A stretch of 64,000 nt of DNA from Bacteroidota bacterium (GTDB lineage: Bacteria > Bacteroidota > Bacteroidia > Palsa-948), in the NCBI GenBank assembly GCA_016213405.1, contig JACRAM010000057.1, positions 27,773-91,772 on the forward strand. Reading direction: 5' to 3'. A program made the position numbers and the translations under genes. The notes below the pieces were generated by a model. The model was given only the letters and a program-made list of their open reading frames with translations. It ran no database searches and had not been told where the DNA came from. Positions 43,733 to 64,000 of the stretch are shown piece after piece. Every line of letters starts with the position of its first letter. Within the stretch, counting starts at the first letter, position 1.

Positions 43733-45997
43733 ATGAAAAAGATTACAATGTTATTCTCATCAGCATTTATTTTCATGAATGTTTTTGCGCAAGACAACGA
43801 TACCATCAATAAAGTCATTCAGTTGAATGAAATGGTGATTTCGGCAAATAAATCAGAAGAAAAAAAATCTGACATACCGCAAACGATCGAAATCATTAAA
43901 AGTAGGGATGTAGAGTTCAATAATCCGCAGACATCAGCTGATATGCTTCAGAGCACGGGAAATGTTTTCGTGCAGAAAAGTCAGGCAGGCGGAGGAAGTC
44001 CGGTGCTGAGGGGTTTTGAAGCGAACAGAGTTTTAATTGTAATTGACGGAATACGAATGAACAATGCTATTTACCGCGCTGGGCATTTGCAGGACGTAAT
44101 CACCGTTGACAACATGATGCTCGATAGAACGGAAGTTCTTTTTGGTCCAGCTTCCGTGATGTACGGGAGCGATGCACTGGGAGGCGTGATGCACTTCTAC
44201 ACAAAAAATCCTGAACTCGTCCGCAAGGACTCCTTCGGAGGAGATACTTCTGGCGTGAATACGAAAATAAATATCGGGCTTCGCTATTCAAGTGCGAACA
44301 GGGAAAACACCGCACATATCAATTTGAATCTTGGATACAAAAAAGTTGCTTTCCTCACCGGCATAACTTCGAGTGATTTTTCTGATTTAAGAAGCGGAAG
44401 TGTCCGTCCGCCATTTGACAAGCCATTCGGCAAGTGCAATTATTATGTGGTGCAATTGGACAGTCTGGATACGCTCATCAGAAACTCTGACCCGAATGTT
44501 CAGCGGTTTTCAGGATACAAACAATTTGACGTGATGCAGAAAATTCTTTTCCGGCAAAACAGCAGTGTTTCTCATCTTGTGAATTTTCAGTATTCCAATT
44601 CATCTGACATTCCGCGCTATGATCGCCTTCAGCAGTTTCAGCCCAACGCGGAACCCGTGTATGCAAAATGGCATTACGGTCCGCAGAAAAGAATTCTCGC
44701 TTCTCTGAAAACAAAAATTCTTTCGGAAGGAAAATTTTTTAATGACATGAACATCATTCTTGCCTGGCAGAATATTGAGCAAGAACGCGTGAGCAGAAAA
44801 TATAAAAAGACGAGCGAGAAAGACCAGCTGGAAAATGTGGGCGTTTATTCCGCGAACATTGATTTCAGAAAAGAGATAAATCCCGTAGGAACTTCTTCCA
44901 ACGGGATAAAAGAAAAACACGAACTGCATTACGGCATTGAAGGAACTTACAACGATGTGCAGTCCTCCGCCACGATGACGGATATTTTTACAAAAGTTGA
45001 AACCGCTACCGCACCTCGCTATCCCGATGGAGGAAGCACAATGATGACTTCCGCCATGTATCTTTCTCACAGCTGGGAGATAAATGAAAAATATATTCTC
45101 ACCGATGGCATTCGGTTTAACTATGTTGATTTGAAATCGCAGTGGAAAGACACCTCACTTTTTCATTTCCCGTTTTCTTCCATTGAACAAAAAAACAATG
45201 CTCTTAATGGGAATATTGGTTTCGTTGCCATGCCGGGATTCGGATGGAGATTCACTCTCCTTGGCTCAAGCGGGTTCCGCGCGCCAAATGTGGATGACAT
45301 GGGAAAAGTGAATGAGTCTGCTCAGGGACAACTCATTGTTCCGAATCCCGTTCTGAAACCCGAGTTCGCTTACAGCAGTGAAGCGGGGATTTCAAAAAAC
45401 TTCAGCGGGAAAGTAAAAATGGAAGCAGTTTATTTCTACACGCTTCTTCAAAATGCTATCGTGGTGAAAGACGATAAGTTTAACGGAGCCGATTCTGTTT
45501 TGTACGATGGCGTGATGAGCAAAGTGCAGTCGGCACAAAACGCAGATGAAGCATACATACAAGGATTTTCTGCAAACTTCATGGCAGACTTTGATGAAAA
45601 TTTTTCTCTGAAGAGTTCGATAAATTACACATACGGAATGTATAAAGACAAAGCAAACGATACGCTTGTTCCGATGGATCACATTCCGCCTGTGTTCGGG
45701 CAGACCACATTAATATATCACTATAAAAGAATTGAAACTGAATTTAACGTTCGATACAACGGATGGAAGCGCCTCGAAGATTACAGTCCGAGCGGAGAAG
45801 ATAATCTGGCACAAGCAACCGCTTATGGAATGCCGGCATGGTACACACTCAATTTTAAAACTGCGTTCGAAATAAATCCGCACATGAAAATCATCGTTGG
45901 AATGGATAATATCCTCGACATGCACTATCGCACTTTTGCTTCAGGCGTGAGCGCTCCCGGAAGAAATTTCATTTTTGCGATAAGAGCCAAACTATAA
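43733..45997 (+). CDS. TonB-dependent outer membrane receptor
   Basis: Signal peptide, plug-domain motifs (...NRVLIVIDGIRMNNA...), about 754 aa beta-barrel. Confidence 0.75.
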   Translation: MKKITMLFSSAFIFMNVFAQDNDTINKVIQLNEMVISANKSEEKKSDIPQTIEIIKSRDVEFNNPQTSADMLQSTGNVFVQKSQAGGGSPVLRGFEANRVLIVIDGIRMNNAIYRAGHLQDVITVDNMMLDRTEVLFGPASVMYGSDALGGVMHFYTKNPELVRKDSFGGDTSGVNTKINIGLRYSSANRENTAHINLNLGYKKVAFLTGITSSDFSDLRSGSVRPPFDKPFGKCNYYVVQLDSLDTLIRNSDPNVQRFSGYKQFDVMQKILFRQNSSVSHLVNFQYSNSSDIPRYDRLQQFQPNAEPVYAKWHYGPQKRILASLKTKILSEGKFFNDMNIILAWQNIEQERVSRKYKKTSEKDQLENVGVYSANIDFRKEINPVGTSSNGIKEKHELHYGIEGTYNDVQSSATMTDIFTKVETATAPRYPDGGSTMMTSAMYLSHSWEINEKYILTDGIRFNYVDLKSQWKDTSLFHFPFSSIEQKNNALNGNIGFVAMPGFGWRFTLLGSSGFRAPNVDDMGKVNESAQGQLIVPNPVLKPEFAYSSEAGISKNFSGKVKMEAVYFYTLLQNAIVVKDDKFNGADSVLYDGVMSKVQSAQNADEAYIQGFSANFMADFDENFSLKSSINYTYGMYKDKANDTLVPMDHIPPVFGQTTLIYHYKRIETEFNVRYNGWKRLEDYSPSGEDNLAQATAYGMPAWYTLNFKTAFEINPHMKIIVGMDNILDMHYRTFASGVSAPGRNFIFAIRAKL

Positions 45998-46086
45998 GAA
46001 GCCCCACCCCTTCCCTCCCCATTAGGGAGGGAGAAAGTAATGCAAGTCCTCCCCAATGGGGAGGATTTAGGAGGGGCTTTTTTATT
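45998..46086. repeat. GC-rich nested-palindrome element (family exemplar). It also functions as a terminator-like structure after the TonB receptor gene.
   Basis: GAAGCCCCACCCCTTCCCTCCCCATTAGGGAGGGAGAAAGTAATGCAAGTCCTCCCCAATGGGGAGGATTTAGGAGGGGCTTTTTTATTTT. Stems CCCTCCCC/GGGAGGG, CCTCCCC/GGGGAGG, GCCCC/GGGGC, then a T-run. Core repeated at 53341-53378 (reverse complement) and 63916-63950. Confidence 0.75.
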
Positions 46087-48124: not shown

Positions 48125-49330
48125 TCAAAACATTTTTCGGTAACACCGCTTACGCTTGTGCTGAATATGCTCGTAACTCTTCCAGTTGGAAATGGCGTTG
48201 AGGTTGGTTTCAAAAATGCCGGTGGTCTCTATGTGCTTCATCCCCTTGCTCACCATTTCTTTCTGTATCTCTGCCATGAGAACCACACCCGCGCCTGTGT
48301 ACATCACTTCTTTTTTCACGCCTGTGAGCAGTTGGTCCATCACATCCTTGCCTTTGCGTGCCTTGAGGATGTGCAAAAAACCGAACGGGAAAAGTTTTCC
48401 GTTTGCTTTTTGCATGGCTTCGGATAAAGAAGGAAGACCTACGATGAATCCAACCAAAGCCCCCCTTAATCCCCCCGAAAGGGGGAAACTTGCGGATGCT
48501 TTTCCTGTGCTCCCCCCTTTGGGGGGAGGGGCTATTACCATCTTTACAAATTCAGGATTGAGAAGCTTGATATATTTCTCTTTGTAGAACGCCATCATCT
48601 TAGGAGAAAACTCTGAAACGAACGGGAGTTCGCTGAACGCGTCATTAAGTATCTTGAAAATAGTATCGGAATGCGGAAGCAGTTCATTCATTGTTTTAAA
48701 ATGAAGCACTTCTATGCCGTAGCGTTTCTGAATCAGTGCAGCACCGCGGGTTACTTTATCCACGATTCTCGGGTTGACAGTGAGGCGGAACTCGAGCCAG
48801 TCAATTTCTTTTACGTAGCCGAGTTTTTCTAAGTGCCGGTGATAATATTCATGATGATACACCGAACCGATAGATTGCAGATGGTTAAAACCTTCCACCA
48901 ACATTCCCTGCGTATCTAAATTCGCAAAGCCAAGCGGACCGTGAATGCCGATGGCTCCGTTTTCTTTTGCCCATGCTTCAACAGTGGAAATAAGCTTTGC
49001 GATTACTTCTGGAGAACCTGTGGTGAGCGGAGTCGAACCATCAAAGAATTCCAAGCGCGAGAAGCGCGCCATCTTTTCGTCTGTCTTTTTATTGTACTCT
49101 TCATTGATGATGGCTCCGATCCTTCCAACGCACTTGCCGTTCTTATAGGCTAACCAGAACTTTGCCTTGCAGAAATCAAACGCAGGATTTGTTTCCGCGA
49201 AAAGCGATTTCATTTCTCCTGCCTTCAATGGAGGAACCCAAAATTTATTGCCTTTGTAAATGTCAAACGGAAGATTTACAAACTGCTTTGCGTCACTCTT
49301 TGATTTAACTTGCTTTATTTCTATTGACAT
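48125..49330 (-). CDS. Hypothetical protein (possibly GNAT-fold acyltransferase-like) carrying an in-frame GC-rich element insertion
   Basis: No secure motif. The product contains the Pro/Gly-rich segment PPPKGGSTGKASASFPLSGGLRGA encoded by the palindromic element at 48458-48533. Confidence 0.35.
   Translation of the reverse strand: MSIEIKQVKSKSDAKQFVNLPFDIYKGNKFWVPPLKAGEMKSLFAETNPAFDFCKAKFWLAYKNGKCVGRIGAIINEEYNKKTDEKMARFSRLEFFDGSTPLTTGSPEVIAKLISTVEAWAKENGAIGIHGPLGFANLDTQGMLVEGFNHLQSIGSVYHHEYYHRHLEKLGYVKEIDWLEFRLTVNPRIVDKVTRGAALIQKRYGIEVLHFKTMNELLPHSDTIFKILNDAFSELPFVSEFSPKMMAFYKEKYIKLLNPEFVKMVIAPPPKGGSTGKASASFPLSGGLRGALVGFIVGLPSLSEAMQKANGKLFPFGFLHILKARKGKDVMDQLLTGVKKEVMYTGAGVVLMAEIQKEMVSKGMKHIETTGIFETNLNAISNWKSYEHIQHKRKRCYRKMF
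48458..48533. repeat. GC-rich palindromic element inserted in-frame in gene 48125..49330
   Basis: AGCCCCCCTTAATCCCCCCGAAAGGGGGAAACTTGC...CTCCCCCCTTTGGGGGGAGGGGCT. Stems CCCCC/GGGGG and CTCCCCCC/GGGGGGAG. The host reading frame is preserved. Confidence 0.6.
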
Positions 49331-52787: not shown

Positions 52788-54173
52788 ATGAAAGTTTTAA
52801 AATTCGGTGGGACATCGCTTGGATCGGCAGAACGGATGAAAAATCTTGTTCAGCTTATCGTGAATGATGAGCCAAAGATTGTTGTTCTTTCTGCCATGAG
52901 CGGAACCACCAATGCATTGGTTGAAATCGCAAATGCACTTTACGAAAGAGAAAACAACAAAGCAAAGCAGCTCATTGACGCACTGGAAAAAAAATACGAA
53001 TTAGTTCTGAAAGAACTTTATTCAAAAGAATCTTCGCTTAACAAAGGAAAAGAGCTAGTAAAGAATCATTTTGAGTTTATCCGCTCTTTCACGCTGGATA
53101 TGTTCACCGCGAATGAGGAAAAAGCCATTCTCGCGCAGGGTGAACTTCTTTCCACCGCTATGGAACATTTTTATCTGGAAGAAATCGGGGTTGATTCTGT
53201 TCTGCTTCCTGCACTCAACTTTATGCGTATTGACGAGAACGATGAACCGGATCTGAAATACATTGAAGAGAACTTAAAAGCGGAATTAAAGAAATACCAA
53301 GCCCTACCTAAATCCTCCCCATCGGGGAGGACTTCAGAAAATACTCCCTCCCTAACGGGGAGGGTTGGGGAGGGGCTCTTATTTATCACACAGGGATATA
53401 TCTGCCGAAATGCATTCGGAGAAATTGATAATCTGAAACGTGGCGGAAGCGATTACACTGCAACGCTCATCGGTGCAGCACTTACTGCGGAAGAAATTCA
53501 AATCTGGACAGATATTGACGGCATGCACAACAATGACCCACGCATTGTTGACAAAACTTTTCCCGTCACTGATTTGTCATTTGAAGAAGCGGCAGAGCTT
53601 GCATATTTTGGAGCGAAGATTCTTCATCCTACCTGCGTAATTCCTGCAAAGAAGAGGAATGTTCCTGTTCGATTGCTGAACACAATGGAACCAAATGCAA
53701 AAGGAACGGTCATAACAAAAAAATCCCCGGGCGATAGAATCACGGCAGTTGCAGCCAAAGACGGAATCATCGCCATCAATATTAAATCTGCTCGAATGCT
53801 TTTAGCTTATGGGTTCCTGAGAAGCGTATTTGAAATTTTTGAGCGCTACAAAACTCCGATCGATATGATTACTACTTCGGAGGTAGCAGTATCGGTTACA
53901 ATTGATAACGACAAAAACTTAGAAGCTATTCTGAAAGAGCTGAAAGAATTTTGTTCTGTTGAAACAGATAAAGACCAAACTATTATTTGCATTGTAGGAA
54001 GTTTCACTGCAGAAAAACAAGGTGTAGCAGTAAAAATTTTTGCTGCGCTATCAACTATTCCTCTGAGAATGATTTCGTATGGCGGCAGCGAGAACAATGT
54101 TTCGGTGCTGGTGGAATCAAAATATAAAAAGGATGCGCTGGTTGCGCTTAATAAAGGATTGTTCAACTTATAA
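52788..54173 (+). CDS. lysC: Aspartate kinase (with C-terminal ACT domains) carrying an in-frame GC-rich element insertion
   Basis: MKVLKFGGTSLGSAERM... N-terminus, LKRGGSDYTATLIGAAL, C-terminal ACT repeats. Insert ALPKSSPSGRTSENTPSLTGRVGEGL immediately before the conserved ITQGY strand. Confidence 0.85.
   Translation: MKVLKFGGTSLGSAERMKNLVQLIVNDEPKIVVLSAMSGTTNALVEIANALYERENNKAKQLIDALEKKYELVLKELYSKESSLNKGKELVKNHFEFIRSFTLDMFTANEEKAILAQGELLSTAMEHFYLEEIGVDSVLLPALNFMRIDENDEPDLKYIEENLKAELKKYQALPKSSPSGRTSENTPSLTGRVGEGLLFITQGYICRNAFGEIDNLKRGGSDYTATLIGAALTAEEIQIWTDIDGMHNNDPRIVDKTFPVTDLSFEEAAELAYFGAKILHPTCVIPAKKRNVPVRLLNTMEPNAKGTVITKKSPGDRITAVAAKDGIIAINIKSARMLLAYGFLRSVFEIFERYKTPIDMITTSEVAVSVTIDNDKNLEAILKELKEFCSVETDKDQTIICIVGSFTAEKQGVAVKIFAALSTIPLRMISYGGSENNVSVLVESKYKKDALVALNKGLFNL
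53312..53378. repeat. GC-rich palindromic element inserted in-frame in lysC
   Basis: CCTCCCCATCGGGGAGG plus ACTCCCTCCCTAACGGGGAGGGTTGGGGAGGGGCTC. The second part is the reverse complement of the core at 63916-63950 and 45998-46034. Confidence 0.7.
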
Positions 54174-62800: not shown

Positions 62801-63916
62801 ATGGAAAACTTCATTGTATCAGCACGAAAGTATCGTCCTCAGACGTTTGACACCGTTGTCGGGCAGGCGCATATTACGAGCACTTTAATAAATGCTATTA
62901 AAACAAACCACGTTTCCCAGGCGTATTTGTTCTGCGGTCCACGCGGAGTAGGAAAAACTACCTGCGCGCGAATTCTGGCGAAGACAATCAACTGCTTTAA
63001 CCGAACAACAAATATTGAAGCGTGCGATGAATGTGATTCATGCAAATCATTTAATACAGGTAACTCATTAAATATTTTTGAACTTGATGCAGCATCAAAT
63101 AATTCGGTGGAAGATATCCGCAATCTGATTAATCAGGTGAGTTTTGCCCCACAAATCGGAACTCACAAAGTATATATTATTGATGAGGTTCATATGCTTT
63201 CGTCAAATGCGTTCAATGCTTTTCTGAAAACGCTGGAAGAGCCGCCAAAACACGCAATTTTCATTCTGGCGACTACGGAAAAACATAAAATTATTCCTAC
63301 GATACTTTCCCGATGCCAGATCTTTGATTTCAACCGGATAAAGATTGATGATATTGTCGGACATCTTTCAACTATTTCAAAAAAAGAAAAAGTAAAATCC
63401 GAAGAAGAAGCGCTGCACACCATCGCCCAAAAAGTAGATGGGTCCATGCGCGATGCACTGAGTATTTTCGACCAGATGGTTTCGCTGTCGGGAGATGTGA
63501 TTACGTATAAATCGGTCATCGACAATCTCAGCATTCTGGATTATGATTATTATTTCAAGGTGACGGATGCATTGCTGGAAAAAAATACTTCTTCATCGCT
63601 TCTCATCTTCAACGAAATACTGAACAAAGGTTTTGACGGACATCATTTCATCAACGGATTAGCAGAGCATTTGAGAAATCTCTTGGTATGCCGAGATGAA
63701 ATTACGCTACAACTTTTAGAAGTAAGTACGAGCATTCGCGGACTCTACAAAACGCAGAGCAAAAAAACAGAACCTGATTTTCTCCTTCGTTGCCTGAGCA
63801 TTCTCAACAAAGCGGATGTGCAGTACAAAGCCAGCCGAAACCAGCGCTTGTTGGTGGAACTTACACTTCTTCAGTTGTGTTCGCTACAAGGCGCTGAAAA
63901 AAAAAATGATATACTG
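62801..63916 (+). CDS. dnaX: DNA polymerase III subunit gamma/tau, zero-frame product (371 aa, domains I-III). Tau-type extension continues in the -1 frame after an A9 run.
   Basis: MENFIVSARKYRPQTFDTVVGQAHIT...GPRGVGKTT...DEVHML...SRCQIFDF...QRLLVELTLLQLCSLQGAEKKMIY then TGA at 63914-63916. Frame verified at several motifs. This ORF is absent from the supplied track. The -1 frame is open to the window end. Confidence 0.75.
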
Positions 63917-63950
63917 AGCCCCACCCCTGCCCTCCCCGTTAGGGAGGGAG
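63897..63950 (+). other. Candidate recoding site in dnaX: A9 slippery run (63897-63905) followed by GC-rich stem-loop element (63916-63950)
   Basis: GCT GAA AAA AAA ATG ATA TAC TGA in zero frame. After a -1 shift or one extra A: ...KKNDILSPTPALPVREGENKTISSKIVSEVKEEQ. Stem CCCTCCC(63929-63935)/GGGAGGG(63941-63947). Confidence 0.55.
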
Positions 63951-64000
63951 AAAATAAAACCATTTCTTCAAAAATAGTTTCGGAAGTAAAAGAAGAGCAA

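Follow-up and report, generated by a model that had tools for sequence, protein, structure and literature searches.

The dnaX gene at the end of the Bacteroidota DNA analysed here (64,000 nucleotides (nt) of contig JACRAM010000057.1 from a metagenome-assembled genome (MAG), hereafter the window) encodes the gamma/tau subunit of DNA polymerase III and is one intact open reading frame (ORF) for a tau protein of 580 amino acids (aa). At the very end of the region encoding domain III, this ORF contains an uninterrupted run of ten adenines (A10), with a stop codon in each of the two other frames only a few nucleotides behind it. The anatomy and conservation of this site make it very probable that the run serves for programmed slippage, be it of the RNA polymerase or of the ribosome, and transcriptional slippage is then the probable main route. 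We propose that the gene works like dnaX of Thermus thermophilus, i.e., that transcripts with different numbers of As are made at the A10 run and that these probably give rise to the 580-aa tau as well as to gamma-like products of ~369 and 371 aa, which may serve as an additional clamp-loader subunit.

Analysis of the product translated from the ATG at 62801 with Pfam revealed DNA_pol3_delta2, DNAX_ATPase_lid and DNA_pol3_gamma3 (the last one covering residues 243-368, i.e., domain III), and these are the clamp-loader domains I-III. The gene had been recognized as dnaX in a preliminary description of this DNA as well, and the landmarks used there for the codon phase, Walker A (GPRGVGKT, 62936) and DEVHML (63182), fit the frame from this ATG. 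It was also correctly remarked that the ORF is missing from the ORF lists; it is missing because its frame exits the window end. The continuation of dnaX past base 64000 rests on an identical deposited protein (P0001 in our set; NCBI, 'MAG: DNA polymerase III subunit gamma/tau [Bacteroidetes bacterium]'), which is encoded by a single ORF, has 580 aa and is 100% identical to the window dnaX. Precomputed annotations, from which the name DUF8439 was taken, list a PF28557 hit at its C-terminus, and this domain is present in all full-length dnaX homologues. The GC content of the genome is 40%.

The run covers codons 366-369, which are read in the zero frame as GA_A AAA AAA AAT (E366 K367 K368 N369), and the Pfam domain III ends at residue 368. 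Behind the run, the zero frame continues (GAA AAA AAA AAT GAT ATA CTG AGC; ...GAEKKNDILSPTPALPVREGENK...; ...LQGAEKKNDILSPTPALPVREGENKTISSKIVSEVKEEQ) and has no stop up to base 64000. No other A or T homopolymer in the 64-kb window reaches ten bases. The preliminary description had noticed a long A run at the end of domain III but ascribed only nine As to it (63897-63905) and let the zero frame terminate at a TGA in positions 63914-63916, with a product of 371 aa. An exact base count gives ten As (Table 1), and there is no such stop in the zero frame. The peptide end 'EKKMIY*' given there arose because one A was miscounted, as in silico deletion of one A reproduces this peptide exactly, and the stop that was taken for that of the zero frame is the TGA of the +1 frame. 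Furthermore, the -1 frame was regarded as open to the window end, although it stops directly behind the run, and the Pro/Ser/Glu-rich, tau-like linker attributed to it belongs to the zero frame. The idea of a reversed polarity, with gamma encoded by the unshifted frame and tau by the shifted one, does not apply to this gene, in which the zero frame encodes tau and each shifted frame meets a stop within 8 nt of the run.

One could argue that the true genomic run is nevertheless A9, or that the assembly is wrong, so that the gene would be split and tau would need a frameshift. Indeed, homopolymers are error-prone, single relatives have runs of deviating length (A11 in locus L081, A8 together with more frame breaks in L082), and genuine two-ORF relatives exist. 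However, A9 came from the count of the earlier reader and not from the data: the given sequence has ten As and is in frame, and the resulting EKKND agrees with dozens of independently assembled homologues as well as with the deposited 580-aa protein. We regard a nine-A genome or a misassembly as extremely improbable, and the homopolymer length error offered as an alternative in the preliminary description is not needed. The window dnaX should not be reported as a split or frameshifted gene.

For Thermus thermophilus dnaX (Larsen et al. 2000), two reviews (PMC5009743, PMC1088944) describe that a run of nine As leads to mRNAs of variable A number, that stops are near in both non-zero frames and any change that is not a multiple of three results in gamma, and that gamma and tau are made at about 1:1. 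The window gene resembles it in having tau in one ORF, a sense-strand A run after the clamp-loader core and close stops in both non-zero frames. It differs in the length of the run (A10, not A9), in the phylum and GC content, and in the presence of the Bacteroidota-specific C-terminal DUF8439; note also that slippage has been demonstrated experimentally in Thermus, whereas here it is proposed. The likeness to the Thermus site had been pointed out before and extends beyond this genome, as an A10 run and near stops in both alternative frames are kept across Bacteroidota (see below). According to the mechanism that we propose, RNA polymerase would slip on the ten-A/T stretch and produce mRNAs with varying A number. 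Transcripts with 10 As (or 7 or 13) would be translated to full-length tau; those with 11 or 8 As would run immediately into the TGA of the -1 frame and give a predicted product of 369 aa (...GAEKKK); and those with 9 or 12 As would reach the TGA of the +1 frame three codons on, with a predicted product of 371 aa (...GAEKKMIY). Both predicted short products consist of domains I-III only and would be gamma-like, as they do not contain the linker and the C-terminal DUF8439. A -1 shift of the ribosome on the in-phase A_AAA_AAA would lead to the same 369-aa product and may contribute to its synthesis.

The conservation of the run was studied in the dnaX loci of 80 species representatives of the Bacteroidota in GTDB, in which the end of domain III was located by tblastn. 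The results were replicated in an independent set of 76 metagenome dnaX loci, mostly encoding proteins of 40-70% identity. A run of A9-A12 shortly after domain III is present in 114 of all 156 loci, and it has exactly ten As in 82 of them (GTDB set, linker run of at least nine As in 65/80 loci and A10 in 48; metagenome set, A9-A12 in 49/76 loci and A10 in 34). The run lengths found across the relatives thus extend from A9 to A12, with A10 as the mode. In the GTDB set, the run stands in all three codon phases (phase 1, 37 loci; phase 2, 17 loci; phase 0, 9 loci), it is found 13 to about 80 nt from domain III, and its 5' flanks differ widely among the loci. The residues encoded by it vary (EKKN, LKKKP, DKKKL, VKKKA and others) while the ten As stay. 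Outside dnaX, only 3 A or T runs of at least ten bases were detected in 505 kb of GTDB-set loci. The linker past domain III is hypervariable in the 120 closest homologues (68-100% identity) except for an island E-K-K-(N/S)-(D/E), which reads GAA AAA AAA A(A/G)T GAN as DNA, i.e., an A run followed by the TGA of the -1 frame; in L083, which carries the EKKSE variant, the DNA is A9-G-TGA. The preliminary description had suggested looking in related Bacteroidota for the A run together with an out-of-frame tau extension. The run turned out to be conserved, but tau is out of frame only in a minority of the relatives, and most of them have one ORF.

In L010:3861, L128 (offset 260) and L031:1724, a long A run is located deeper in the linker, 260-360 nt past domain III, which suggests that the run was relocated or re-created during evolution.

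The distance from the run to the next stop in the alternative frames was determined for the 57 one-ORF GTDB loci and compared (Mann-Whitney) with background codon boundaries of the same genes. The median distance is 3 nt at the run vs 20 nt in the background for the -1 frame, and 10 nt vs 34 nt for the +1 frame. A -1 stop is found not more than 12 nt from the run in 96% of the one-ORF loci (37% of the background positions), and in 84% of them neither stop is more than 30 nt away (29% of the background). The corresponding p values of 4e-16 (-1), 2e-10 (+1) and 3e-22 (both) are inflated by the relatedness of the loci, yet the flanks differ between lineages.

Is the run a peptide motif or a nucleotide signal? 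In the long ORFs of the window, AAA makes up 79% of the Lys codons, and 6.0 of the 12 KKK tripeptides would be expected to be encoded as AAAAAAAAA; none of them is (p about 3e-4 by our own arithmetic on the counts). The genome avoids nine-A runs in coding sequence, and dnaX is the exception. Such an avoidance is expected if RNA polymerase slips on these runs (Baranov et al. 2005, PMC1088944), and it suggests that the polymerase or the ribosome of this organism does so. These data bear on the simplest alternative, namely that dnaX is not recoded and yields only tau, the A run being tolerated as the by-product of a Lys-rich linker in an AT-rich genome and the nearby off-frame stops being incidental. 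The uninterrupted ORF is annotated as a single protein, AAA is by far the preferred Lys codon, off-frame stops are common and the run is missing in many Bacteroidales, all of which such a by-product would explain. It would not explain why A10 is retained in three codon phases with differing flanking residues, why the other KKK tripeptides of the window never use AAAAAAAAA, why runs of this length are so rare in the remaining 505 kb, or why stops are enriched in both alternative frames; moreover, the tau of the two-ORF relatives described below would be impossible without slipping on the same run. An absence of recoding therefore appears improbable to us.

The reversed layout that had been proposed for the window does exist in 19 relatives (8 GTDB and 11 metagenome loci), which possess two ORFs. 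In the eight GTDB loci (Table 1), whose proteins are 66-71% identical to the window protein, the zero frame ends 4-7 nt past A10, and the -1 frame continues for about 610 nt. The layouts in the metagenome set were one ORF in 38 loci, two ORFs with tau in the -1 frame in 10, and two ORFs with tau in the +1 frame in 1. Among the split loci, the frame change needed for tau is -1 in 18 and +1 in L133 and L081. L133 combines A10 with a tau in the +1 frame; L081 has A11 (1413-1423) with tau in the +1 frame and a downstream ORF carrying DUF8439 (PF28557), while its close relatives are in frame with A10. L082 has A8 (1338-1345) plus more frame breaks downstream and is probably a poor assembly. Either assembly errors in the homopolymer or genuine indels that slippage rescues may account for the off-pattern runs or frames of L081, L082 and L133. 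L081 and L082 were looked at when the short homologues P0110 and P0091 were checked for run-length heterogeneity, and single cases of this sort do not distinguish true indels from misassembly. In E. coli, tau is essential. If this is also true for Bacteroidota, the run must slip efficiently there, because the two-ORF relatives need a frame change at the same A10 to make tau, and in that case they would provide the best indirect evidence for actual slippage at the run.

Some genes of this kind have been reported before. Antonov et al. 2013 (PMC3711429) described a 'novel organisation' of dnaX in 17 genes with two ORFs, of which nine have A10, from e.g. Flavobacterium johnsoniae, F. psychrophilum, Cytophaga hutchinsonii, Capnocytophaga ochracea, Chlorobium species and Coraliomargarita. 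They put the A10 runs into an alignment with the A9 site of Thermus and suggested transcriptional realignment as the mechanism (Supplementary Figure S3 therein). The window gene shares with them the phylum group, the A10 run, its position in the gene and the proposed mechanism. However, in the genes of Antonov et al. the zero frame stops just past the run and tau needs a shift, whereas the window gene encodes tau without a shift and would need one for the short product. Unlike the two-ORF genes, the one-ORF form is undetectable by a frameshift-finder such as GeneTack. A site of roughly 50% efficiency permits flips between the two layouts (Atkins 2016, PMC5009743).

Alternatively, the run might be a phase-variable tract at the DNA level, at which replication slippage toggles between tau-proficient and tau-truncated genotypes. 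Runs of ten As are mutable in DNA, and length variants from A9 to A12 do occur among the relatives. Still, the length is tightly centred on 10, and it is the downstream frame that is adjusted instead of the length; furthermore, the OFF state is expected to be lethal if tau is as essential as in E. coli, unless it is rescued by the same RNA-level slippage. We therefore consider DNA-level phase variation very unlikely.

A more serious question is whether the short product could arise mainly by -1 programmed ribosomal frameshifting on A_AAA_AAA (63898-63904), ending at the TGA of the -1 frame. This heptamer lies in phase inside the run and has the X_XXY_YYZ pattern, although not in its optimal version A_AAA_AAG. 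The window gene is similar to E. coli dnaX in that an in-phase A-rich heptamer is followed by one codon and a -1 TGA (A_AAA_AAG AGU GA in E. coli), with tau encoded by the zero frame and gamma obtained by the shift. The A9-G-TGA of L083 encodes EKKSE, which resembles the KKSE site of E. coli. In addition, the -1 stops are nearer to the run than the +1 stops, and a -1 change is required by 18 of the 20 two-ORF relatives. On the other hand, the heptamer of the window is A_AAA_AAA within a 10-nt run, and in E. coli A_AAA_AAA is far less shift-prone than A_AAA_AAG. The site is at the very end of domain III, in contrast to that of E. coli dnaX, which is located about 60 residues beyond the domain III end. 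The 5' flanks of the run, whose spacing was not analysed systematically, show no obvious conserved Shine-Dalgarno-like stimulator. The flank in the window (...CAAGGCGCTG) is without AGGAGG or GGAG, and in some Flavobacteriia loci GGAG adjoins the run. There is no stem-loop at the usual spacing either. No conserved fold was found downstream of the run in 65 loci (45-nt mean z -0.35, control -0.18), and upstream of it there is a weak tendency to structure (mean z -0.66, p = 0.02 vs control).

The preliminary description had regarded a hairpin in the window, CCCTCCC-cgtta-GGGAGGG, as the counterpart of the E. coli stem-loop. The hairpin exists (63930-63948; 7-bp stem, 5-nt loop), but it begins 23 nt past the run instead of about 5-9 nt. 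Part of the variable linker (SPTPALPVREGE) is translated from it, and the closest homologues P0002, P0004 and P0005 (87-92% identity) have no such hairpin. As the hairpin is also a copy of a dispersed element and downstream structure is not a general feature of the loci, its role as a frameshift stimulator was rejected, and it probably does not belong to the recoding signal. Transcriptional slippage is favoured over the translational mechanism because the conserved run is longer than a heptamer requires, stops are enriched in both off-frames and not only in the -1 frame, tau can be in either shifted frame (+1 in L133 and L081), and no flanking structure is conserved. A mainly ribosomal origin of the short product seems unlikely.

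Several observations nevertheless weigh against programmed transcriptional slippage as we propose it. First, all phases of A10 still encode KK or KKK, so that selection may also act to some extent at the peptide level. Second, about a quarter of the Bacteroidota loci, mostly of the Bacteroides, Prevotella or Phocaeicola type and gut-metagenome contigs, have no run (Table 1), and the run is therefore dispensable in some lineages. Third, off-frame stops are frequent anyway at a GC content of 40%, as the background value for -1 stops shows. Fourth, the bias towards -1 suits a ribosomal -1 shift and a single-A insertion equally well. Finally, no experimental paper on Bacteroidota dnaX products was found in our literature search.

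The hairpin belongs to a dispersed GC-rich family, as had been stated earlier: its 19-mer is present in three copies in the window (46013; 53346, minus strand; 63930), compared to none in 100 shuffles. The dnaX copy and the 46013 copy share about 38 nt (GAGCCCCACCCCTG...AGAAA), but the former is without the second hairpin that is present in the 46013 and 53346 copies. Together with a third hairpin type (Table 1), this family of short GC-rich hairpins looks like a repetitive extragenic palindromic (REP)- or miniature inverted-repeat transposable element (MITE)-like element.

In many Flavobacteriia-like loci, GATGGAG adjoins the A run (gatggagAAAAAAAAAA), about 12 nt before it. This context recalls the Thermus site GAGGGAGAAAAAAAAAGCCTGA in Supplementary Figure S3 of Antonov et al. 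2013; in the window lineage, this position is occupied by GGCGCTG.

Table 1. Features of the window and groups of dnaX loci from the comparison sets.
Feature	Position	Strand	Remarks
dnaX (DNA polymerase III gamma/tau), codons 1-400 of 580	62801..64000	+	uninterrupted frame, exits window end
A10 homopolymer, candidate slippery site	63897..63906	+	exact base count
TGA, -1 frame	63907..63909	+	0 nt after run; simulated A11 and A8 translations
TGA, +1 frame	63915..63917	+	8 nt after run; simulated A9 and A12 translations
Partial in-frame copy of dispersed GC-rich element (GAGCCCCACCCCTG-CCCTCCCcgttaGGGAGGG-AGAAA)	63916..63953	+	shared with 46013 copy
Composite copy, two hairpins CCCTCCCcattaGGGAGGG + CCTCCCCaatGGGGAGG	46013-46064		directly after stop of ORF 43733-45997
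Composite copy, CCCTCCCcattaGGGAGGG/CCTCCCCaatGGGGAGG pair in opposite orientation	53314-53364		53346 copy inside mechanical ORF 52788-54173
Third hairpin type CTCCCCCctttgGGGGGAG	48510-48528		
Two-ORF GTDB loci			L037-L039, L042, L060, L062 (Fluviicola chungangensis), L064, L067
Loci without long A run past domain III			L017, L024, L030, L040, L045, L065, L066, L068, L076-L078, L080, L085, L088, L089, L093-L095, L110, L118, L134, L135, L139, L143, L145, L146, L149, L151
Loci with GATGGAG at the run			L108, L109, L113, L119, L120, L137, L138, L141, L142, L162

Our literature search did not reveal any paper on the one-ORF A10 form of dnaX in Bacteroidota. This form is a direct extension of published work, and the idea itself is not new. 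Taking all loci together, we lean, with some reservation, towards the view that A10 is a phylum-wide recoding signal at the nucleotide level in Bacteroidota dnaX, which would act in any codon phase and at a varying position of the linker. About half of the transcripts would slip, lineages would change over repeatedly from a layout with tau in frame to one with gamma in frame and back, the one-ORF form would prevail, and a gamma missing from all annotations would be produced by most Bacteroidota. If this is true, the organism studied here and most other Bacteroidota would synthesize an unannotated gamma-like clamp-loader subunit by slippage at A10, and the two-ORF observation of 2013 would extend to the more common one-ORF form. 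The dnaX genes of this phylum would then offer about 115 natural sites, covering three phases and two polarities, at which the slippage of Bacteroidota RNA polymerase could be studied.

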